Shown one piece after another: positions 32,427-43,457 of a DNA stretch of 64,000 nucleotides. Both the position numbers and the translations under genes were made by a program. The notes under the pieces are model-generated. The model was not told the origin of the DNA. It did no database searches and worked only from the letters and a program-made list of their open reading frames with translations. The stretch comes from Frankiaceae bacterium (GTDB lineage: Bacteria > Actinomycetota > Actinomycetes > BP-191). Where the stretch lies: the NCBI GenBank assembly GCA_035556555.1, contig DATMES010000022.1:7577-71576 (forward strand), in the 5' to 3' direction. The number at the start of each line of letters is the position of its first letter. The stretch's first letter is position 1.

Positions 32427-32810
32427 TCAGACGGTCAGGCCGAGCATCTCCCGTACGACGGGGAGCAGCTGGGCGAGGTCGTGCTTGCGCAGGTACCGGT
32501 CGATCGCGGGCTCGCGCGACACCTCGACCGCGAGATCGTGCGTCGTGAACAGCAGGATCCGCGACGTCGGCGCCACCCGCTTGATCATCGGCGCGAGGTC
32601 GACACCCATGATCGTGCCCTCGATGAAGTGGTCGAGGATGACGAGGTCGGGCGCCATGGCCTCGGCGAGCGGCAGGGCCTCCTCCGCGCTGGCGGCCTCG
32701 CCGTCGACCTCGATCCCCGGCTCGCCCATGAGCGTGAGCCGGATGAGTCGCCGGAAGTCGGCGTCGTCCTCGATGACGACCAGCACCTTCAGCAACGGCG
32801 CGTCCGTCAC
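32427..32810 (-). CDS. Single-domain response regulator (receiver only, CheY-like)
   Basis: LVVIEDD...DLVILD; GTGA overlap with the kinase stop. Confidence 0.8.
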   Translation of the reverse strand: MTDAPLLKVLVVIEDDADFRRLIRLTLMGEPGIEVDGEAASAEEALPLAEAMAPDLVILDHFIEGTIMGVDLAPMIKRVAPTSRILLFTTHDLAVEVSREPAIDRYLRKHDLAQLLPVVREMLGLTV

Positions 32811-34939
32811 GTCACGCTCCTCGCCCGCGGCACCGTGTAGCGCAGCGTCGTACCCGTACCGACGTGGCTCTCCACGCCGATCTCGCCACCCTGTGCCTCG
32901 ACAAGGGCACGGCAGATGTACAGGCCCAGACCGGTGCCTTTCTCTCCCCCGGACGGCGTAGCGAGGCGGGAGAACTTTCCGAACAGCCGCGGCAGGTCCT
33001 CCGGCGGGATTCCCGGACCGCGGTCGCACACGCGCACCTCGAGAAAGTCCCCCACGACGCCCACAGAGACCCGGATCGGGTACTCCGGCGGGGAGAACTT
33101 CTGCGCGTTCGAGATGAGGTTGGTCAGCACCCGCCACTGGCGGTCCTCGTCGCCGAGCGCCGTGGGGAGGTCCTCCGGTACGTCGGCGACGACGTTGCGG
33201 TCGTCGCGCGCGGCGTTCATCTCGTCCACGGTGCGGGTGACGAGCGCGCCGAGGTCGAACGGCGCGATGTCGTACGGGAAGTCGCCCGACTCGATCCGCG
33301 CGACCTGCAGCACGTCCTCGACGAGGACCGACAACCGCTTGGTGTTCTTGCTCGCGACGCCGAGGAGCTCCCGCTTCATCTCGTCCGGCAGGTCGTCCCA
33401 GCGCTGGAGCACCGTGTCGACGTAGCCGGCGATGACGGTCATCGGGGAGCGCAGGTCGTGGGCGACGACGCCGACGAACTCGTTCTTCAACGCGTCCAGC
33501 TCGCGCAGCCGCGCCGTCGTCTCGCGCTCGTACTCGAGCCGCGCCAGCGTGTAGAGCGCGCCGCCGACGACGTTGACCAGCTCGCCGACGATGACGAGGT
33601 CCTCCGGCGAGAACGTGTCCGGCTCGGTCGCCGCGAAGCTCAGCAGCGCGCGCGGCTGACCCGTGACGACGACGGGCGCCGCGACGCAGGACCGGACGCC
33701 GAGCCGGACGGCGTGCTCGCCGAACGCCGCCGCGATGTCGTTCTGCAGGAACGGCCCCCGCGCCTCGAGGATCGCGTGGAGCAAAGGGTCGTCGAGGGAG
33801 ACCTCGCTGCCGATCGGCAGGGCGGTCATGTCCTTGCCGCAGACCGCGACGACGGTCGTCACCTCGCCGTCGACGATCGACAGCGTCGCCCGGTCGAACC
33901 GCAGCACGCTCGACACCGCGCCGGAGAACGCGTCGAACCCCTCACCGAGGCTCGTCGCCGTCGCGACGGCGAGGTACGCCGCGCGCAGCACCGCGTCGCG
34001 CCCAGTGCGCCGTACGAGCACGTCCTGGAACGCCAGCCGCCGCGCCGCCTCCTCCTCCAGCTTGGCGGCGAGCCCCTCGGCGACGAGCCTGCGGCGGCGC
34101 GCGTGCTGGCCGAGCGACGTCGCGACCGCGAGCAGCGCCGAGAAGACGAGGCCGATGACGAGTACGCCGCCGGCCGCCCGGTCGAGCGAGATGGTGCGCG
34201 TGGCGTCGGTGCCGAGGTTGGTCAGCGCCTGCCAGAGCACGAGCGTCGCCGCGAGCGCGCCCACCGCCACGGGGATGGGCAGCCAGCGCGGCAGACCGTC
34301 GGTGTTGGCGAGGTTCCACGCGGTCCCGAGGTAGCCCATGGAGAGCAGCAGCAGGAGGAACGCCGTCAACGGCGCCATCGCGGTGCTGGAGCGCCACGTG
34401 TAGGCGGTCGTGACGTCGGCGGCGTACCCGAACAGCGCGACCAGCGCGAGGCCGGCCACGAGCGAGGCGGCCACGCCGACCGCGAGCGCGGCGCGGCGGG
34501 ACCGTTCGGATCGCGCGAACCAGAACGCGCTCGCGCCGAGCAGGGCGAAGCAGGCGGCGGAGTTGCCCGGCATCCGGCCCGGCGACTCGCCGGTCTTCAG
34601 CCACGGGTCGAACAGCAGCCGGTCGATGCCGAGGTCGACGCCGGCGACGTACTCCACGACGGTCGCGGCACCGGCGAACGTCACCAGCGCGATCGGCACG
34701 GTCGCGAAGCGGACCCAGCGGGACAGCGTGAGAAGCAGGCCGACGCCGAGCAGCCCGAGGCAGAGCGCGGTGTTGAACTGCATCGGCACCTGGTCGGCGC
34801 GCAGCCGCACCAGCTCGACGCGGTGCGTCAGCCAGCCGGCGAGCACCACCGCGCCGCCCAGCACCGCGACGACGGCGGCGGCCTCGGCGGGAAGGCGGGC
34901 GCTACGGGGCGGCAGCGGTGCCGACGCGACCGACGCCAC
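32807..34939 (-). CDS. Sensor histidine kinase: polytopic membrane N-domain, GAF, HisKA, HATPase_c
   Basis: H-box EFVGVVAHDLRSP; N, G1 and G2 boxes; GGGAGG RBS before the GTG. Confidence 0.8.
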   Translation of the reverse strand: MASVASAPLPPRSARLPAEAAAVVAVLGGAVVLAGWLTHRVELVRLRADQVPMQFNTALCLGLLGVGLLLTLSRWVRFATVPIALVTFAGAATVVEYVAGVDLGIDRLLFDPWLKTGESPGRMPGNSAACFALLGASAFWFARSERSRRAALAVGVAASLVAGLALVALFGYAADVTTAYTWRSSTAMAPLTAFLLLLLSMGYLGTAWNLANTDGLPRWLPIPVAVGALAATLVLWQALTNLGTDATRTISLDRAAGGVLVIGLVFSALLAVATSLGQHARRRRLVAEGLAAKLEEEAARRLAFQDVLVRRTGRDAVLRAAYLAVATATSLGEGFDAFSGAVSSVLRFDRATLSIVDGEVTTVVAVCGKDMTALPIGSEVSLDDPLLHAILEARGPFLQNDIAAAFGEHAVRLGVRSCVAAPVVVTGQPRALLSFAATEPDTFSPEDLVIVGELVNVVGGALYTLARLEYERETTARLRELDALKNEFVGVVAHDLRSPMTVIAGYVDTVLQRWDDLPDEMKRELLGVASKNTKRLSVLVEDVLQVARIESGDFPYDIAPFDLGALVTRTVDEMNAARDDRNVVADVPEDLPTALGDEDRQWRVLTNLISNAQKFSPPEYPIRVSVGVVGDFLEVRVCDRGPGIPPEDLPRLFGKFSRLATPSGGEKGTGLGLYICRALVEAQGGEIGVESHVGTGTTLRYTVPRARSVT

Positions 34940-35134
34940 AGCCACCTCCCTGGGACCCCTGGAGCCGTTGCGTGGATCTTGCCCCCCTTTGGTCTCCCGA
35001 TGCGACAGGTTGGCCGAACGTTCGCGGCGGCGCCGCGCGGCATGCGAGACTCGGCGACCACGAGCAGCAACGGCGCTGCGACCCGTCCGGCCCGCTTCCT
35101 TCCCCAGGCTGCGTACCGCATTGGAGCCCGTTGC

Positions 35135-38100
35135 ATGACCCGCACCCCGTACCACCTCGACCCCGAACGCGACGCCTGCGGCATCGGGTTCGTCGCCGAC
35201 GTGCGCGGGCGGCGTACGCACGAGCCCGTCGCCGAGGCGCTGAACGCCCTCGGCAGGGTCGAGCACAGGGGCGCGATCGCCGACGACCCGCAGGCCGGCG
35301 ATGGCGCGGGCCTGCTCGTGCCGATCGACGCGGCGTTCTACGCGGCCCGGCTGCCTGGCCTCCAGCCCGACGACGTGGAGCTGCTGGGCATCGCGATGGC
35401 GTTCCTGCCTGCCGACGTCGAGGGCGGGGAGCCGATCCAGGCCGCCGCGCGGCGCGCCTTGGAGGACGCCTGCCTGCACGAGGGCATCGGCGTCTCCGGC
35501 TGGCGGGTCGTGCCCGTCGATCCCGAGGCGCTCGGCGAGCACGCGCGCAGGCACGCGCCGCGCATCGAGCAGGCGGTCCTGCTGCGCTCGACGTCGGTGC
35601 CCGTCGACGAGGCCGAGCGGCGCGCGTTCCGCGCCCGCAAGCGCTTCGCGCGGACGGTGGCGGCGCGCGGCATCCCCGCGTACCTCGCGTCGATCTCGTT
35701 CCGCACGGTGACGTACAAGGCGCTCTGCGCGGCGGAGCAGCTCGGCGCGTTCTACGCCGACCTGACGGATCCGGAGCTGACGGGGTCGTTCGCGGTGTTC
35801 CACCAGCGGTACTCGACCAACACGACGCCGACGTGGACCCGCGCGCAGCCGTTCCGCTTCCTCTGCCACAACGGCGAGATCAACACCATCCAGGGCAACG
35901 TCAACTGGATGAGCGCCCGCGAGGGGTCGCTCGGCACCGGCGACCTCATCGAGGAGGAGCTGGTCCGCCCGGTCATCGAGCCCGACGGCTCCGACTCGGC
36001 GATGCTCGACAACGCCGTCGAGCTGCTCGTGCGCGCGGGCCGCGACATCCGGCACGTCATGGCGATGCTGGTGCCCGAGGCGTGGGAGGACGCGGGCCAC
36101 CTGCCCGCCGACGTGCGCGACTTCTACGAGTACCACGCGGGCCTGACCGAGCCGTGGGACGGCCCCGCGGGGCTGGTCTTCACCGACGGCGAGCGGGTCG
36201 GCGCCTGCCTGGACCGCAACGGCCTCCGCCCGCTCCGGTGGGCGGCGTCACAGGACGGCCTCGTCGTCTGCTCGTCCGAGGCCGGCGTCGTCAACCTCTC
36301 GGGCCGCGGCACCGTCACGCGAGGCCGCCTCGGGCCGGGCCAGATGATCTGCGTGGACCCGCGGTACGGCCTGCAGACCGACGCCGACATCAAGGGCTGG
36401 CTCGCGCGGCGGCGCCCGTACGGCGAGTGGCTGCGCAACGGCCTGCGCCGCGTCTCCGCCGGCGCGCCCGTGCGTGAAGCCGGACCGGCGCTGGCGCTGC
36501 GGCAGGTGGCGTACGGCTACACCCGCGAGGAGCTCACGACCGTCCTGCGCTCGATGGGCACGACCGGCAAGGAGCCGGTCTCGTCCATGGGCGACGACAC
36601 CGCGCTGTCGCTGCTGTCGGGGACGCGGCGGTCCGTCGCGTCGTACCTGAAGCAGCGGTTCGCGCAGGTCACGAACCCCGCGCTCGACCACCTGCGCGAG
36701 CGCACCGTCATGTCACTGCGTACGCGCCTCGGCATGCTGGAGCCGCTGCTCACCGAGCGGCCCGAGGCGGCGCGCGGCGTGGAGCTGGCGACGTTCCTGC
36801 TGACGCCGGCGGGGCTCGACGAGCTGGTCGGCGCGTCCGAGGTGCTCGGGCGCTACACGCGCCTCGACGCGACGTTCCCCGTGGCCGACGGCCCGGCGGG
36901 ACTGGAGAGCGCGCTCATCAAGCTGTCGTACGCCGCCGAGTCGGCGATCCTCGCCGGCTCGGAGCTCGTCGTGCTGGACGACTCGGCCGTCTCACCCGAC
37001 CGCGCGCCGGTGCCGATGCTGCTCGCCGTCGGCGCCGTGCACCAGCACCTCATCGACGGGCAGCTGCGCTCGCTCGCGTCGGTCGTCGTGGACTCCGGCG
37101 AGCCGCGCGAGGTGCACCACTTCGCGACGCTGCTCGGGTACGGCGCCGAGGCCGTCTGCCCGCGCCTCGCGCTGGAGACCGTGGCCGCGCTCGCCACCAA
37201 GACCGGCGGTCCCGAGGCGGCGGGGCCCGCGCAGGAGGCGTACCGGCACGCGGTCGAGGACGGCGTGCTCAAGGTGATGTCGAAGATGGGCATCTCGTGC
37301 CTCGACTCGTACCGCGGGGCGCAGATCTTCGACGCCGTGGGCCTGTCCGCGGCCGTCGTCGACCGCTGCTTCCGCGGCACGGTGTCGCCGATCGGCGGCG
37401 CGGGGTTCGCGGACCTCGCGGAGGACGTGCTGTACCGGCACCAGAAGGCGTACGACGCCAAGCCGGTCCTCGACAACCCCGGCTACGTGAAGTGGCGGCG
37501 CGGCGGCGAGTACCACCACAACAACCCCGACGTCATCCAGGCGCTCCAGTCGCTGACGGTCCCGGATGCGCCACCGGTGCCGGGCGCCGACAAGGAGCTG
37601 GCCGCGGCCCACTCGCTGCGGACGGCCGTGCAGAAGGGCGAGCGGGCGGCGTACGACCGGTTCGCCGCGCTCGTCGACGACCGGCCGCCCACCAACCCGC
37701 GCGACCTGCTGGAGGTCATCCCCGCGGCGACCCCGGTGCCGCTGGACGAGGTCGAGCCGGTGGCGTCGATCGTGAAGCGGTTCTCGACCGGCGCGATGTC
37801 GCACGGGTCCATCGGCGCGGAGGCGCACGAGACGCTGGCGCGGGCCATGAACATGCTCGGCGCCAAGAGCAACTGCGGCGAGGGCGGCGAGGACCCGGCG
37901 CGGTTCCGCAACGACCGCAACAGCAGGATCAAGCAGATCGCGTCGGGGCGGTTCGGGGTGACGCCGGAGTACGCGGCGTTCGCCGACGAATTGCAGATCA
38001 AGGTGTCGCAGGGCTCGAAGCCCGGCGAGGGCGGGCAGATCCCAGGCCACAAGGTGTCGGAGGAGATCGCGCGGCTGCGGCACACGACACCCGGCGTCGG

Positions 38101-39634
38101 TCTCATCTCCCCGCCGCCGCACCACGACATCTACTCGATCGAGGACCTCTCGCAGCTCATCTACGACCTCAAGCAGGTCAACCCGCGCGCGGACGTCTCG
38201 GTCAAGCTCGTCGCGTCGGCCGGCGTCGGGACGATCGCGGCCGGCGTGGCGAAGGCGTTCGCCGAGGTCGTGCACGTCTCGGGCACCGACGGCGGCACGG
38301 GCGCCTCCGCGCTGTCGTCCATCAAGAACGCCGGCCTCGACTGGGAGTTCGGGCTCGCGGAGGCGCAGCAGTCGCTCCTCGCCAACGGCCTCCGCTCCCG
38401 CGTGCGGCTGCGCGTCGACGGCGGCTTCAAGACGGGCCGCGACGTCATCATGGCCGCGCTGCTGGGGGCCGACGAGTACTCGTTCGGCACGGCCGCGCTG
38501 CTCGCCGAGGGCTGCATCATGGTCCGCGCCTGCCACCGCAACACCTGCCCCGTCGGCATCGCGACGCAGGACCCCGAGCTGCGGAAGAAGTTCACGGGCA
38601 CGGCCGAGCAGGTCGCCGACTACCTGCGCTTCGTGGCCGAGGAGGTGCGCGAGACGCTCGCGGTGCTGGGCTTCCGTTCGCTGGACGAGGCGATCGGGCG
38701 TACGGAGTCGCTGCGGCAGCGGCGTACCGACGACCCGCGCGCCGAGTCGCTCGACCTGCGCCCGCTGCTCGCGGTGCCCGCGGAAGGCCCTCGTCGGTTC
38801 GTGGCGCCGGTGTCGATCCAGCGCCAGCACGCGCCGCTGGGCGACCGGCTCTTCGACGTCGCGTGGCCGGTGGTCTCGACCGGCGGCACGCTCGAGGTCG
38901 ACTGGGACATCCGCAACGGCGACCGGTCGTTCGGGGCGCGGCTCGGCGGCGCGATCGGTCGCGCGTTCGGGGCGGCGGCGCCTCCCGGCGCGGTCACGGC
39001 ACGGCTGACCGGCGTAGCGGGGCAGAGCCTCGGGGCGTTCCTCACCGAGGGCATCCGCGTCGAGCTGACCGGCGAGGCCAACGACTACGTCGGCAAGTCC
39101 ATGGGCGGCGGCGTCGTCGCGATCACGCCGCCCGCCGACGACGCGGGCGACGCCGTGCTGGCCGGCAACACCGTGCTGTACGGCGCCACCGGCGGCCGCG
39201 TGTTCATCGGCGGGCGCGCCGGCGAGCGGTACGCCGTCCGCAACTCCGGCGCCGTCTCCGTCGTCGAGGGCGTGGGCGACCACCTGGCCGAGTACATGAC
39301 CGGCGGCACCGTCGTCGTCCTCGGCCCGACGGGCCGCAACGTCGGCGCGGGGATGAGCGGCGGGGAGGTCTTCGTCCACGACCTCGACCAGGCCCGCGTC
39401 AACCCCGCGATGGTGCGCGTGGACGCGCTCACCGCCGAGCAGGCGGGGCGCGTGAAGGCTCTGCTCGAGGAGCACCTCGCCGCGACCGGCTCGCGCCGCG
39501 CCGCCGCGCTGCTCGCCGACTGGGCGGTCGAGGCGGGCCGGTTCCTGCGCGTCGCGCCGACGCCGCCGGTCGTCGAGCTCGACGTCGAGGACGAGGAGAA
39601 GGTGGAGGCGTCGGCGACGGGTTCGACCGGATAA
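35135..39634 (+). CDS. gltB: Glutamate synthase large subunit
   Basis: 1499 aa; N-terminal CGIGFVA amidotransferase nucleophile; FMN, Fe-S and GXGXG domains. Confidence 0.95.
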   Translation: MTRTPYHLDPERDACGIGFVADVRGRRTHEPVAEALNALGRVEHRGAIADDPQAGDGAGLLVPIDAAFYAARLPGLQPDDVELLGIAMAFLPADVEGGEPIQAAARRALEDACLHEGIGVSGWRVVPVDPEALGEHARRHAPRIEQAVLLRSTSVPVDEAERRAFRARKRFARTVAARGIPAYLASISFRTVTYKALCAAEQLGAFYADLTDPELTGSFAVFHQRYSTNTTPTWTRAQPFRFLCHNGEINTIQGNVNWMSAREGSLGTGDLIEEELVRPVIEPDGSDSAMLDNAVELLVRAGRDIRHVMAMLVPEAWEDAGHLPADVRDFYEYHAGLTEPWDGPAGLVFTDGERVGACLDRNGLRPLRWAASQDGLVVCSSEAGVVNLSGRGTVTRGRLGPGQMICVDPRYGLQTDADIKGWLARRRPYGEWLRNGLRRVSAGAPVREAGPALALRQVAYGYTREELTTVLRSMGTTGKEPVSSMGDDTALSLLSGTRRSVASYLKQRFAQVTNPALDHLRERTVMSLRTRLGMLEPLLTERPEAARGVELATFLLTPAGLDELVGASEVLGRYTRLDATFPVADGPAGLESALIKLSYAAESAILAGSELVVLDDSAVSPDRAPVPMLLAVGAVHQHLIDGQLRSLASVVVDSGEPREVHHFATLLGYGAEAVCPRLALETVAALATKTGGPEAAGPAQEAYRHAVEDGVLKVMSKMGISCLDSYRGAQIFDAVGLSAAVVDRCFRGTVSPIGGAGFADLAEDVLYRHQKAYDAKPVLDNPGYVKWRRGGEYHHNNPDVIQALQSLTVPDAPPVPGADKELAAAHSLRTAVQKGERAAYDRFAALVDDRPPTNPRDLLEVIPAATPVPLDEVEPVASIVKRFSTGAMSHGSIGAEAHETLARAMNMLGAKSNCGEGGEDPARFRNDRNSRIKQIASGRFGVTPEYAAFADELQIKVSQGSKPGEGGQIPGHKVSEEIARLRHTTPGVGLISPPPHHDIYSIEDLSQLIYDLKQVNPRADVSVKLVASAGVGTIAAGVAKAFAEVVHVSGTDGGTGASALSSIKNAGLDWEFGLAEAQQSLLANGLRSRVRLRVDGGFKTGRDVIMAALLGADEYSFGTAALLAEGCIMVRACHRNTCPVGIATQDPELRKKFTGTAEQVADYLRFVAEEVRETLAVLGFRSLDEAIGRTESLRQRRTDDPRAESLDLRPLLAVPAEGPRRFVAPVSIQRQHAPLGDRLFDVAWPVVSTGGTLEVDWDIRNGDRSFGARLGGAIGRAFGAAAPPGAVTARLTGVAGQSLGAFLTEGIRVELTGEANDYVGKSMGGGVVAITPPADDAGDAVLAGNTVLYGATGGRVFIGGRAGERYAVRNSGAVSVVEGVGDHLAEYMTGGTVVVLGPTGRNVGAGMSGGEVFVHDLDQARVNPAMVRVDALTAEQAGRVKALLEEHLAATGSRRAAALLADWAVEAGRFLRVAPTPPVVELDVEDEEKVEASATGSTG

Positions 39635-39709
39635 CTGCCTTGCCTGCCCCTTTCGTCATCGCTACGGTGCGCATCGCGCTGGACGCCCCCTACGAATAGA
39701 GGTCTCTCA

Positions 39710-40552
39710 GTGACGCGTTCCATGCCTTTCGCAGCCGCGACTGCAGTCGTCGGCGCGGCTTTGCTGGTGGCAGTTTCGACCCCCGCCGACGCCCAGACGC
39801 CGGAGGTGACCGTATCGTCATGCGCAGCCGAGAACTCGATGGCGCATGCAGGTACGAACGTTGGATGGACGTGCGTCGAAGTCAATGTCATGGAACTCCT
39901 GCAGAGCGACCCCCTGGAAACTCCGGTTCCGGTTCCTGATCCGTTCGCAACACTCGTCGACGACGCCGAGGAGTCCGCTGACTTCGCGACCGACGAGTTG
40001 TGGAACACCGCCACCGACAATCGGGTTTACCTCGACCCGGCCAACGACGTGGACGGTGGCTGCTCGATACAAACCGACTACTGCTACCGCTCCGACATCT
40101 ACCAGTGGCGCATGGACGGCACGCTCTGGTATGGCATCGGTGAGCGGACGATCGGCAAGATCCGTCAGCAGGGACGCATCTCGTTGAACGGCCGGCAGTC
40201 GAACTTCCTGTGGTCGGCGGACCCTATCGAGGGTCCCGCGATCGACTCGATCCTCGATACGTTCTGTACAGACGGCAACGGATGGCGTAGCAGCACCTCG
40301 TGCGGGCGCAATACGGTGAAGTCGTTTGGGTATACGACCAGTTTGATCAGCATGGCGCCGTCCTATTATCACAGTGACGACAGCGACTACTACGGCCGGT
40401 TCCGCCTCATGTTCAAGTCTCAGGGAAACCCGAATCCCTCGGATCAGAGTGGTCAAGGATACTTCTACGCACCGGTGATCACGAGCCAGTACTTCGACTG
40501 CGACGACGACTTCCGCGAATCGGCCAAGTGCCGGTTCCGCGAAGCGAGCTGA
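39710..40552 (+). CDS. Secreted cysteine-rich protein (280 aa) encoded in a low-GC islet
   Basis: Signal peptide ending ADAQT; at least 10 Cys; local GC about 58-60% versus about 72% in the flanks. Confidence 0.55.
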   Translation: MTRSMPFAAATAVVGAALLVAVSTPADAQTPEVTVSSCAAENSMAHAGTNVGWTCVEVNVMELLQSDPLETPVPVPDPFATLVDDAEESADFATDELWNTATDNRVYLDPANDVDGGCSIQTDYCYRSDIYQWRMDGTLWYGIGERTIGKIRQQGRISLNGRQSNFLWSADPIEGPAIDSILDTFCTDGNGWRSSTSCGRNTVKSFGYTTSLISMAPSYYHSDDSDYYGRFRLMFKSQGNPNPSDQSGQGYFYAPVITSQYFDCDDDFRESAKCRFREAS

Positions 40553-40554
40553 CG

Positions 40555-40857
40555 ATGACCGGTGCGGACCGGGTCGTGTACATAGCCGAGCGACTCGCCG
40601 AGGACGCTCACCTCGGGTGGCCTGCTACGACGCGACTCTACGGCCACTGCGAGAAGCGGCAGCCCCTGCCGAGAGTCGTCGAGGCTGGCCCGGGTTGGGA
40701 CAGTGCCGAGGACGCGATCGAGTGGGCCCGAGCCCGCGCGGCCGTCGTCATGCTTCGACTTGGCTCGACAGTTCCACAGGTGACCTACTCCGCCGGATCG
40801 GTCCATCCCGACCAGGATCTGCCGCTGTGGCCCGCCTCCGTGAGGGAGCAACAGTAG
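40555..40857 (+). CDS. Small cytoplasmic hypothetical protein (100 aa), downstream partner of the secreted protein
   Basis: ATG 3 nt after the upstream stop; GC about 64%. Confidence 0.4.
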   Translation: MTGADRVVYIAERLAEDAHLGWPATTRLYGHCEKRQPLPRVVEAGPGWDSAEDAIEWARARAAVVMLRLGSTVPQVTYSAGSVHPDQDLPLWPASVREQQ

Positions 40858-40999
40858 GTCTGCTGGAGAAGCGTTGTCCCTTGCGACGTAGCGCGCGGTG
40901 GCGCTCCGGCGCGTGGCACGACCTGGTGACGTACTCGCGGCTGCGGGGCGACTGAGCGTACGGTCTGCCGGTCACGCCCCCTACACCGGAGGAACCCCT

Positions 41000-41242
41000 A
41001 TGCGCCTGCGCCTCCTCGCGGCCGGCCTCGCCGCCGCCGCGTCGCTCGCCGTGCCTGCCGCGGCAGACCCGCTGTACTTCGAGCGCGAGTGCTCGGGGCC
41101 GGTCGACGCGGCCTGCTACCACGACTTCTGCGGGATCTACGACTGCATCAGGTCCGACTGCCTCGCGTACACCGGGCTGCTCGGCGAGGGCAACGCCGGC
41201 CTCTGCGTCGGCAAGGCGCGCCCGCGCGACCCCATCTCATAG
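41000..41242 (+). CDS. Small secreted cysteine-rich peptide (80 aa precursor; mature peptide with 6 Cys)
   Basis: GGAGGA RBS 7 nt before the ATG; signal peptide MRLRLLAAGLAAAASLAVPAAA|DPLY. Confidence 0.5.
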   Translation: MRLRLLAAGLAAAASLAVPAAADPLYFERECSGPVDAACYHDFCGIYDCIRSDCLAYTGLLGEGNAGLCVGKARPRDPIS

Positions 41243-41329
41243 GGGGCCTGTGGACGGCGGTCTCGGCGCCGTCCACAGATTGCGCCCGGCTGGTGGTCTC
41301 CGGGCTCGCGCGTCCCTAGCGTCGTACGG

Positions 41330-41770
41330 GTGGGACAGCCAGCCGGCCTCGACGTCGTCGAGGGGACCGTACGCCGCGAGCTCGACGCGCAGGAACGCCG
41401 CGTCGACGCGGCGGACTCCCACGCGCGCCTCGTCATGGCGACCGCCGGCGTCTTCGTGACCCTGGCCGACGGCGGCTGGCTACCGCTGCTGCTGACGTCG
41501 CGGCTGATGGCGGGGCTCGCCGCACTGGCGGCGTTGGTGGCCCTCGCACCCAGTACGCGCGCGGCATTCGACGCGCGCGTACTGGGCGGGTACCTCGACG
41601 CCGACCCGGCCGACGTGCGTCTGGAGCTGCTGGCCGGCGACATCCGGGCGTCCGACCGCCTGGAGGCGCGTCTGACGGTCAAGGTGGCGCGTCTGCGCCT
41701 CGCGTCCAGGCTGATCATGGCGTCGGTGGCGTTCGCCACGCTCGCCGCTATCGTCGACGGTGTGACGTGA
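41330..41770 (+). CDS. Small membrane protein (146 aa; 2-3 TM after an N-terminal helical segment)
   Basis: GTG start; hydrophobic helices; no recognisable domain. Confidence 0.4.
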   Translation: MGQPAGLDVVEGTVRRELDAQERRVDAADSHARLVMATAGVFVTLADGGWLPLLLTSRLMAGLAALAALVALAPSTRAAFDARVLGGYLDADPADVRLELLAGDIRASDRLEARLTVKVARLRLASRLIMASVAFATLAAIVDGVT

Positions 41771-41783
41771 CGGGAGGTACCCC

Positions 41784-42017
41784 GTGAAGTGTGTGTGCGA
41801 CGAGGACGGGAAGTTCGACTTCGACCTGATCGAGCCCCTCCGCGGGGTGCGGTACCTCCTCGGGGAGAAGCAGCAGTGGCTCCGCATGCAGGACGAGATG
41901 ATCGCCCGCATCCGCGCCAGGAGAGCCGAGATCGCGGCCAACAGGCGGGTGCCGTGCACGTGCGAGGCGAACTTCCGCCTCCTGTCGACCGGCACGCGCG
42001 AGCGGCCGGCCTCCTAG
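41784..42017 (+). CDS. Small protein with two CxC pairs (77 aa; possible zinc ribbon)
   Basis: GGGAGG RBS before the GTG; KCVCD...PCTCE. Confidence 0.45.
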   Translation: MKCVCDEDGKFDFDLIEPLRGVRYLLGEKQQWLRMQDEMIARIRARRAEIAANRRVPCTCEANFRLLSTGTRERPAS

Positions 42018-43457
42018 CTACGACCAGGCGATGAACGCCGCCGGGTCGGCCAGGCAGCGCGCCACGTCCGCGAGGAACTGCGACCCGAGCTGGCCGTCCA
42101 CCATCCGGTGGTCGAACGACAGCGCCAGCTGCGTCACCTGCCGGATCGCGATCTGCCCCTCGTGCACCCACGGCATCTCGCGGACGGCGCCGAAGCAGAG
42201 GATCGCCGCCTCGCCGGGGTTGATGATCGGCGTGCCGTTGTCGACGCCGAACACCCCGACGTTCGTGATCGTGATCGTCCCGCCGGTGAGGTCGGCCGGC
42301 GGCGTCTTGCCCTCGCGGGCGACGGCGGTGAGGTCGTTGAGCGCGCCGACCAGCTCGGGCAGCGACAGGGCGTCGGCGTCCTTGATGTTCGGGACCATGA
42401 GGCCGCGCGGGGTGGCGGCGGCGATGCCGAGGTTGACGTAGTTCTTGACGACGATCTCCTGCGCCGCCTCGTCCCACGACGCGTTGATCTCGGGGTTGCG
42501 CTTGACGGCGAGCAGCAGCGCGCGGGCGACGAGGGCGAGCGGCGTGATCTTCAGCCCGTCGAACTCCGGCAGCGCGCCGAGCGACTTCCGCAGCTCCATC
42601 ATCGGCGTCACGTCGACGGTGATGAACTCCGTGACGTGCGGCGCCGTGAACGCCGACTCCACCATCGCCGCCGCGGTCAGCTTGCGGACGCCCTTGATCG
42701 GCACCCGCGTCTCGCGCTCGCCCGAACGGACGGGCCGCGCGGCGCGTGCCGGGGCCTCGGACGGAGCGCCGTTGGACGACACCGCGGCCTGGACGTCGTC
42801 ACGGGTGATGACGCCGTCGGGGCCGGTGCCGTGCAGCAGCGCGAGGTCGACGCCGAGGTCCTTGGCGAGCTTGCGGACGGGCGGCTTCGCCTTGGCGCGG
42901 CCACCCGCGGGGGCTACGACGGCCGCGTGCTCGGCGACGGTCGCGGCGGACACCCGCGCGGGCGGGGTCGGCTTCGACGGCGTCGTGGGCGCGGCGGGGG
43001 CGCGGCGGGGGCGGCGTTCGGCGGTCGTCTCCTTGATGCCGTAGCCGACGAGGACGGCGGTACGGCCGGTGGACGTCTTGCCGCCGATCTTGCCCTCCTC
43101 GACCTCGTCCTCGGCGGGCGGTGCGCCGGCGGCGCCGGACAGCTCGGCCTGGACGGCGGCCCTGGCCTCGGAGACCGGGTCGGCGGACTCCGCGGGCAGG
43201 TCGCCGGCAGAAGGGTCGGTGTCGACGGCGATGATCGGCTGGCCGACGTCGACCGTCGTGCCCTCCTCGTAGAACAGCTTGGTCACGACACCGGTGAACG
43301 GGCACGGCACCTCGACGGCCGCCTTCGCCGTCTCGACCTCGACGATCGGCTGGCCGTCCTTGACCTCGTCGCCGGGGGCGACGAGCCACTTGAGGATCTC
43401 GCCCTCGGTGAGCCCCTCGCCGAGGTCGGGGAGCTTGAACTCGCGGATACGAGACAT
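42018..43457 (-). CDS. bkdC: Dihydrolipoamide acyltransferase, E2 of the branched-chain/pyruvate 2-oxoacid dehydrogenase complex
   Basis: N-terminal lipoyl domain (EVETAKAAVEVP), E3-binding domain, and C-terminal catalytic DHRMVDG. Confidence 0.9.
   Translation of the reverse strand: MSRIREFKLPDLGEGLTEGEILKWLVAPGDEVKDGQPIVEVETAKAAVEVPCPFTGVVTKLFYEEGTTVDVGQPIIAVDTDPSAGDLPAESADPVSEARAAVQAELSGAAGAPPAEDEVEEGKIGGKTSTGRTAVLVGYGIKETTAERRPRRAPAAPTTPSKPTPPARVSAATVAEHAAVVAPAGGRAKAKPPVRKLAKDLGVDLALLHGTGPDGVITRDDVQAAVSSNGAPSEAPARAARPVRSGERETRVPIKGVRKLTAAAMVESAFTAPHVTEFITVDVTPMMELRKSLGALPEFDGLKITPLALVARALLLAVKRNPEINASWDEAAQEIVVKNYVNLGIAAATPRGLMVPNIKDADALSLPELVGALNDLTAVAREGKTPPADLTGGTITITNVGVFGVDNGTPIINPGEAAILCFGAVREMPWVHEGQIAIRQVTQLALSFDHRMVDGQLGSQFLADVARCLADPAAFIAWS

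Follow-up and report, generated by a model that had tools for sequence, protein, structure and literature searches.

In a 64,000-nucleotide stretch of a contig from a Frankiaceae bacterium (DATMES010000022.1; the whole stretch is called the window below), the glutamate synthase gene gltB (35135-39634) is followed on the same, forward strand by two genes, p280 and p100, which encode a predicted exported protein and a small protein that carries no export signal. The parts of this pair, in window coordinates, are as follows.

39710-40552, + strand: p280, GTG start, 280 amino acids (aa), recognized from its open reading frame (ORF), translation and coding-frame pattern
39710-39793, + strand: Sec-type signal peptide, residues 1-28, predicted cleavage between ADA and Q, read from the sequence
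39815-39886, + strand: N-terminal Cys-loop module, residues 36-59, C38...GW-x-C55; modelled as helix 37-45 plus strand 52-59, with an AlphaFold2 predicted local distance difference test (pLDDT) of ~85
39887-40096, + strand: acidic proline-rich linker, residues 60-129, predicted disordered; AlphaFold2 pLDDT <50 for residues 62-129
40097-40549, + strand: C-terminal beta-sandwich domain, residues 130-280, the candidate payload; cysteine pairs C186/C198 and C264/C274 conserved
40187-40198, + strand: N160-G161-R162-Q163, tip of a long beta-hairpin with strands 146-160 and 163-174
40555-40857, + strand: p100, ATG start, 100 aa, non-secreted; the preceding stop codon ends at 40552

Frame plots give the expected coding pattern in both ORFs, and the composition of the pair differs from that of its surroundings. 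The guanine-plus-cytosine (GC) content is 0.607 in p280 and 0.683 in p100, against 0.72-0.77 in the flanks, with a dip to 0.58-0.63 across 39700-40600. The lowest-GC 843-bp stretch of the whole window lies around the p280 ORF (0.604; z about -4.4, given a window mean of 0.722 and a standard deviation (sd) of 0.027), so that the lower-GC islet proposed by a first-pass annotation of this sequence is real. Codon usage deviates strongly as well. GC at third codon positions (GC3) is 0.776 in p280 (z = -5.1) and 0.782 in p100 (z = -4.9) relative to 21 neighbouring genes, whose mean is 0.954, sd 0.035 and minimum 0.843; these are the 23 genes found by an independent gene caller on an identical public contig (L001), excluding the pair. 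With z-values of about -5, the deviation exists at the codon level and not only in amino-acid composition.

A rare exported family and its downstream partners

At its N-terminus p280 carries a typical Sec signal peptide (MTRSMPFAAATAVVGAALLVAVSTPADA, continuing after the cleavage site with QTPE), in agreement with the signal-peptide protein of 280 aa first annotated, and its GTG has the ribosome-binding site AGAGG 8 nt upstream; instead of the ten or more cysteines reported then, however, the protein has eight (residues 38, 55, 118, 125, 186, 198, 264 and 274). The C-x(6-15)-GW-x-C motif of the N-terminal module recurs in many family members. The linker varies in length among them, being gappy in the alignment, and holds the p280-specific pair C118/C125. 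For residues 130-280, AlphaFold2 run on the family alignment predicts an all-beta sandwich with pLDDT >90. Conserved positions of this domain are structural (glycine, proline, cysteine and aromatic residues), apart from the NGRQ turn at the hairpin tip, its only strongly conserved polar feature: in 30 sequences G161 is invariant, R162 is kept in 27, N160 in 26 and Q163 in 20. The earlier statement that p280 has no recognizable catalytic motif stands, as no catalytic residues are conserved across the family alignment. Sequence and predicted fold mark the domain as a module for binding or structure rather than as an enzyme.

The family is rare and patchy in distribution. A word-indexed search of 5.8 billion proteins with p280 retrieves only p280 itself, and HMMER, run exhaustively over 1.84 billion cluster representatives, returns 30 proteins at E<=1e-3, 7 of them at E<=1e-10, nearly all of which align only to p280 residues ~125-278; a profile search with the domain alignment finds six short-contig proteins only. 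Among 185,579 species genomes there is no relative of the closest p280 subfamily. Members are 200-290 aa long, and most full-length ones begin with a signal peptide, followed by a variable linker and the 150-aa domain. Their sources are nearly all short soil-metagenome contigs, together with one Dehalococcoidia metagenome-assembled genome (MAG); a cultured carrier is Streptomyces sp. SID8379 (WP_158689152.1). No match to p280 was found in Pfam, NCBIfam, PADLOC, PHROGs or PDB sequences, no housekeeping family was matched, and a Foldseek search of the p280 model against PDB and BFVD gave no significant match. The libraries searched contain no description of either the p280 or the p100 family, nor any annotation of the gene pair.

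The p100 gene starts 2 nt after the p280 stop codon and is predicted, from this arrangement of the sequence, to be translationally coupled to it. Its product has no signal peptide and no membrane segment, as expected of the cytoplasmic partner that had been placed just downstream of p280. There is no match to it in Pfam, NCBIfam, PADLOC, PHROGs or PDB, and a word-indexed search with it retrieves only itself, but p100 is a real, conserved gene. The tail of the family member P0019 matches p100 (BLASTP E 2e-6, 33% identity over 70 aa). As called (341 aa, L090 418-1443), P0019 is a family member fused through a frameshift to the partner encoded behind it; the secreted protein at that locus really ends in another frame, with FTCRTTDRLCQFP before the stop codon.

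Nine loci are informative in having enough sequence downstream of the family gene (the contigs of the other members end earlier), and in all nine a non-secreted ORF of ~100 aa follows on the same strand. Because every member with enough downstream sequence has one, the small intracellular partner is a family-wide feature, which bears out the pairing first noticed in the window. The partner is of the p100 type in six of the nine, namely the window, P0004 (L089), P0019 (L090), P0011 (L091-93), P0020 (L094) and P0013 (L095-97). Such p100-like ORFs downstream of family genes are often missed by gene finders. In most loci the spacing ranges from a 4-nt overlap, as between the P0020 gene and its partner, to about 60 nt. 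The call at P0004, the closest full-length relative of p280, is weaker (HMM E 1.8e-9): the p100-like match lies ~150 nt downstream and ends at the contig edge. At the same locus an ORF of 47 aa with a single predicted membrane helix (MTRRRVIVLLGGVVVVAALVAATW...; L089 1469-1612) overlaps the P0004 stop codon and precedes the p100-like gene; it is not seen in other loci.

The other three informative members (P0032, P0033 and P0034) belong to the clade that lacks the C186/C198 loop, and their partner, here called type B, is a different protein, whose start lies 168 nt after the stop codon in L004. The three type-B copies are conserved among themselves and show no relation to the p100 type (hhalign probability 0.2%). 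Neither type B nor the longer p100-like variants have a library match in Pfam, NCBIfam, PADLOC, PHROGs or PDB-sequence searches. One clade has swapped its partner for an unrelated protein of like size and position.

A second delivery context for the domain is suggested by P0014, a 202-aa contig-edge fragment without a signal peptide that begins GRFISEDSLLGEP...HLYAYATGGPVGAWDPDG. Its start aligns with the final 34 positions of the Rhs-associated core (TIGR03696 positions 42-75 of 76, E 3.6e-4, 21 bits) with the motif GRFISxD...LYAY...DPDG, after which the family domain follows directly. Between P0014 and P0020, at whose locus the partner is of the p100 type, this domain is 46% identical. In BLASTP against E. 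coli RhsA the core end of P0014 is not significantly aligned, and the link rests on the profile match and the visible motif. In Rhs/YD proteins, the core-end motif is followed by a variable toxic payload, and the gene that comes next provides immunity.

p100-like genes also occur alone. The solo genes at L108 (204-2481) and L112 (344-3186) adjoin a Rep gene (REP_ORF2-G2P / pSAM2-like), a small helix-turn-helix (HTH) gene and a serine recombinase gene, and the Rep, HTH and recombinase neighbours suggest carriage on small integrative or plasmid-like actinobacterial elements. One further locus (L101 86-3064) holds an NlpC/P60 gene, a truncated p100-like copy, an RHS-repeat fragment (PF05593, E 7e-4), a gene for an LprI lysozyme-inhibitor-like protein, one for a SecDF-P1-head-like lipoprotein and, directly downstream of the latter, an intact p100-like gene; the locus has the look of a toxin/immunity graveyard with its parts scrambled. 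In three near-identical contigs (L099 4947-5210, L100 4947-5177 and L103 3982-4233) a p100-like sequence is split over two frames, which reflects either a pseudogene or a shared assembly error, and these copies adjoin genes for an HtrA-type protease and a CAP-domain secreted protein. Solo copies in such settings are typical of orphan immunity genes.

Insertion of the pair between gltB and p80

The features that surround the pair are the following.

35135-39634, + strand: gltB, glutamate synthase large subunit, 1499 aa; Pfam GATase_2, Glu_syn_central, Glu_synthase and GXGXG; NCBIfam NF008730, 1566 bits
39668-39709, + strand: ancestral spacer and ribosome-binding region at the left junction, identified by DNA alignment with L009 and L011; now serves p280
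40858-40999, + strand: p100-to-p80 spacer, with the right junction near its 3' end; no counterpart in L009 or L011
41000-41242, + strand: p80, 80-aa secreted protein with six cysteines; native composition (GC3 0.96), tblastn homologues in relatives
41248-41278: perfect 12-bp stem hairpin that follows the p80 stop codon
41330-41770 and 41784-42017, + strand: two small genes of 146 aa and 77 aa, of native composition, between p80 and E2

The closest relatives of the window are Frankiaceae/Mycobacteriales MAGs, with identities of 84-87% over the GltB C-terminus and 92-96% over E1beta. In the seven closest loci (L009-L015), gltB is followed by small secreted genes and then by the E2-E1beta-E1alpha operon on the opposite strand, and neither p280 nor p100 is found anywhere. 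In L009 and L011, a p80 homologue lies ~37 nt after the gltB stop codon. The segment 39668-39709 of the window is homologous to the gltB-to-p80 spacer of these relatives (an alignment score reached by 1 of 2000 shuffles), whereas the spacer now upstream of p80 is not above chance in the same comparison (820 of 2000). Because it has no counterpart in the relatives, the spacer 40858-40999 probably came with the pair, and because the left spacer is ancestral and the right one is not, ~1.3 kb (about 39710-40990) was inserted before p80. Relative to the closest relatives, the pair is thus a foreign insertion of ~1.3 kb, flanked by two genes that lie outside it: gltB upstream, and p80, the ancestral first gene after gltB, downstream.

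It might instead be argued that the pair is ancestral and was deleted in the relatives, its low GC reflecting amino-acid composition or weak expression, an alternative that bears on origin only. Low GC at first codon positions (0.49-0.55, with 0.55 in p280) is indeed a family trait of the secreted gene that other loci show too, and the region between gltB and E2 is variable among relatives, which makes losses plausible. Furthermore, of the marks by which genomic islands are recognized, the locus has atypical composition and absence from close relatives, and it lacks an integrase, a tRNA target and flanking repeats: there is no tRNA or Rfam element in the window, no integrase, transposase or mobility gene among the called genes within 10 kb, and no convincing flanking repeat or clear target-site duplication at the cassette. 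However, GC3 is five sd below the neighbours in both genes, and it is equal in the two despite their differing amino-acid compositions. Moreover, the homologous pair at L094 has a GC3 of 0.94, which is that of its host, so that low GC3 is not intrinsic to the family. We therefore favor insertion over loss elsewhere, as both genes share the aberrant GC3 and the L094 pair does not; taken together with the compact gltB-spacer-p80 arrangement in two related species and the absence of the pair from all seven relatives, this leaves ancestral loss only a slim chance. As for the vehicle, a phage or plasmid origin was considered and rejected: p280, p100 and the long p100-like variant have no match in the plasmid collection, the long variant has none in the phage collection, and the closest p280 subfamily and the p100 family have no relatives in viral contigs.

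A different history was implied by the first-pass annotation, which located the islet where one would look for gltD. That gltD adjoins gltB, as in E. coli, is textbook knowledge, and it is all that speaks for the islet having replaced gltD and disrupted a gltBD operon. The absence of gltD from the window is as first described: tblastn with E. coli GltD (E<=1e-5) detects no GltD-like sequence in the 64 kb, and a GltD motif scan agrees, with E. coli GltD as a working positive control. The expectation itself is mistaken, however, since neither tblastn nor the motif scan detects any in the 80 closest gltB loci (out of 185,579 species-representative genomes), and 0 of the 80 has a gltD-like gene within 10 kb. 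No gltD is therefore to be expected after gltB here. In this gltB clade without adjacent gltD, the relatives have a p80 homologue ~37 nt downstream in its place, and we reject the cassette as a gltD replacement, whose probability is close to nil; the gltD angle has no significance. GltB itself scores equally against Fd-GOGAT and NADPH-GOGAT structures in PDB, and no Fd-loop-type insertion is seen in it relative to E. coli GltB. Residues 806-829 of GltB (SLTVPDAPPVPGADKELAAAHSLR) are a 24-residue insertion that its counterparts from E. coli, Synechococcus and Verrucomicrobia lack; it is complete in L009 and partial in a Thermoleophilia MAG.

Between gltB and E2 lies a zone whose content of secreted proteins varies from genome to genome. 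In relatives it lies between gltB and the branched-chain keto-acid dehydrogenase operon, and it contains one or two secreted proteins of ~460 aa per relative (L009 11043-12452; L010 7992-9365 and 9398-10780), which are not in the window. Homologues of p80 found by tblastn lie directly after gltB in L009 (10743-10991) and L011 (10745-10993) and before E2 in L010 (10820-11155); they keep the motif ...FEReC.G.vD..CY..FCGI..C...DC..., and a second, more divergent copy adjoins E2 in L009 (13294-13488) and L011 (13248-13454). No match exists for p80 in Pfam, NCBIfam, PADLOC, PHROGs or PDB sequences. Weak homologues of the 146-aa protein occupy the corresponding position in L009 and L011; neither this protein nor the 77-aa one has a Pfam match. 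Promoter and terminator consensus scans of 39400-42200 gave no matches. Long ORFs on the opposite strand over real genes, at 41137-42477 (446 aa), 39085-40020 (311 aa) and 32807-36136 (1109 aa), are high-GC artefacts and no genes; the one of 446 aa, the only one tested, has no Pfam match and a non-coding GC3 of 0.66.

Function of the pair

What might such a pair do? Our best reading, for which we consider the chances evenly balanced, is that it is a Sec-exported payload of the polymorphic-toxin type with a cognate immunity-like partner, a proposal made by analogy. The signature on which it draws is the same domain in two delivery contexts, an obligatory small downstream gene, partner replacement, solo partner-like genes and patchy horizontal spread. 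The family domain is found C-terminal to different trafficking modules, the Sec signal with the Cys-loop in most cases and the Rhs core end once, and the small same-strand gene behind it, recognized by position and conservation, varies by clade. The cassette was acquired horizontally and entered a variable region, with gltB on one side and the native gene of a small secreted protein on the other. According to this proposal, p280 would be exported via Sec, and its beta-sandwich payload released outside the cell against competing bacteria. The payload would probably be a non-enzymatic, target-binding toxin, with the NGRQ hairpin tip as the best candidate surface, and p100 would be the cognate neutralizing protein that shields the producer. 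The sequences and models show the foreign composition, the insertion relative to the closest relatives, the export signal, the fold, the family-wide small ORF downstream, the partner replacement in one clade and one fusion to an Rhs core end; toxicity, the physical binding of p280 and p100, the target and the mode of entry are the parts that we infer. The first-pass annotation had left the choice between a toxin/immunity and an effector/chaperone pair. The Rhs core end and the partner swap favor the former; the latter found no support, and an effector with its chaperone from a specialized secretion system is rejected, as p280 has a Sec signal and no dedicated secretion system is nearby.

A number of observations weigh against a toxin with its antidote. 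Neither p280 nor p100 matches a known toxin or immunity family, no toxin activity is recognizable, and none of the 30 family members has a match in Pfam, NCBIfam or PADLOC. No catalytic constellation is conserved in the family, and the beta-sandwich fold is generic. The Rhs link comes from a single contig-edge fragment whose 21 bits compare with a TIGR03696 cut-off of 32.5, although the match falls below this full-length cut-off because only the core end is present. The predicted structure of p100, from a two-sequence alignment, reaches a pLDDT of 42. Domain and partner identities do not co-vary (r = 0.06, 10 pairs). A metagenome scan seeded with the p100 motif found 15 loci with p100-like genes, and as none of these independent genes adjoins a p280-type domain, p100 is not a dedicated partner family. 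Finally, if the domain depends on disulfides, its site of action should be extracytoplasmic, so that p100, which has no export signal, fits poorly as an antidote; immunity to such extracytoplasmic toxins is usually membrane-bound or exported.

These difficulties invite the view that p280 is a harmless binding or structural protein, such as a cell-surface or cell-wall protein, a lectin or an inhibitor of a foreign enzyme, and that p100 has a regulatory, folding or export-assisting role. A sandwich without catalytic residues whose hairpin tip is exposed would suit a binding module or an inhibitor loop, p280 sits among other small secreted proteins, and the many unrelated contexts in which p100-like genes occur without a secreted protein are what one would see for a general-purpose small protein; the cytoplasmic location of the partner, hard to square with an extracellular disulfide-bonded toxin, would cease to be a problem. 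However, this view does not explain why one clade has an unrelated partner of the same size at the same position, or how the domain came to stand behind an Rhs core end in P0014, and it leaves the very rare, patchy distribution and the foreign composition unaccounted for. An export-assisting p100 would also be out of the ordinary, as dedicated cytoplasmic chaperones for Sec substrates are unusual. It is the main rival, and we hold it possible but doubtful. Far less probable is an MspA-like channel or another beta-barrel pore-forming envelope protein. The rim domain of the MspA porin (PDB 2v9u, 1uun) resembles p280 in fold only, with 12% identity and a score within the range of generic immunoglobulin-like sandwiches; p280 has no Pfam MspA (PF09203) match and no stem-forming hairpins, and we regard this possibility as effectively excluded.

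It would be tempting to go one step further with the proposed payload and antidote, and to see in the beta-sandwich the first representative of a class of non-enzymatic, disulfide-locked toxins, delivered via Sec or an Rhs tip and neutralized by a cytoplasmic protein, for which two unrelated antidote families have evolved. We consider this rather unlikely. A cytoplasmic antidote to a disulfide-locked toxin would imply that the toxin enters target cells and acts there once reduced, or that the producer must be shielded from it until it is exported. Secreted polymorphic toxins with immunity proteins are well known and new payload and immunity families turn up regularly, while Sec-exported protein toxins of soil actinobacteria have been recognized only recently. 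If the toxin proposal is true, the known secreted weapons of soil actinobacteria would gain through this pair a payload fold and two antidote families that are new, and a disulfide-bonded exported protein with a cytoplasmic partner could indicate a new mode of action or self-protection. The cultured Streptomyces carrier makes the hypothesis testable. If it is wrong, the pair is still a rare, conserved one without annotation in any library searched, and a clean case of a very small, recently inserted foreign cassette.

Comparison with known systems

The S8-PTS/ABP systems consist of Sec-exported toxins with a downstream cytoplasmic immunity gene in Gram-positives, including actinobacteria (PMC9424270, PMC12582261); ABP comprises the protease AbpP, the toxin AbpT and the immunity protein AbpI (PMC9424270, PMC12582261), and the N-terminal BetaH domain, of ~120 aa, is a seven-stranded sheet wrapped round a helix (PMC9424270). 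The p280-p100 pair resembles them in its Sec signal, in the order of N-terminal module, linker and C-terminal payload, in the downstream partner gene and in its occurrence in actinobacteria. However, p280 has no BetaH domain, as its AlphaFold2 model contains only helix 37-45 and strand 52-59 before the linker, and the genes called within 10 kb on either side of the pair include no protease, of the S8 type or otherwise. Because the BetaH domain and the protease are lacking, the pair is not a member of S8-PTS/ABP. The conservation is also reversed: S8-PTS/ABP toxins keep their N-terminal domain and vary in their payload, whereas in the p280 family it is the C-terminal domain that is conserved. 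Moreover, S8-PTS/ABP payloads are nucleases, and the p280 domain is, by sequence, no enzyme.

Secreted enzymes paired with cytoplasmic inhibitors, such as barnase-barstar, RNase Sa with barstar homologues, staphopain-staphostatin and SPN-IFS, offer another comparison. In these pairs the cytoplasmic protein binds its partner and protects the producer against protein that folds before export. As in p280-p100, a Sec-exported protein is encoded beside a cytoplasmic protein of ~90-110 aa. Their secreted proteins, however, are hydrolases with clear active sites, none of which is recognizable in p280, and p280, which would need four disulfides, is unlikely to fold in the cytoplasm.

Rhs/YD polymorphic toxins differ from the pair in other ways. 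The p280 domain belongs to no catalogued toxin family, has no catalytic residues and is predicted to be disulfide-bonded; the p280 of the window is without Rhs repeats or another known delivery scaffold. What the two have in common is the occurrence of the same C-terminal domain on different N-terminal trafficking parts, together with a small non-secreted downstream gene, a partner swap in one clade, patchy horizontal spread and solo partner-like genes.

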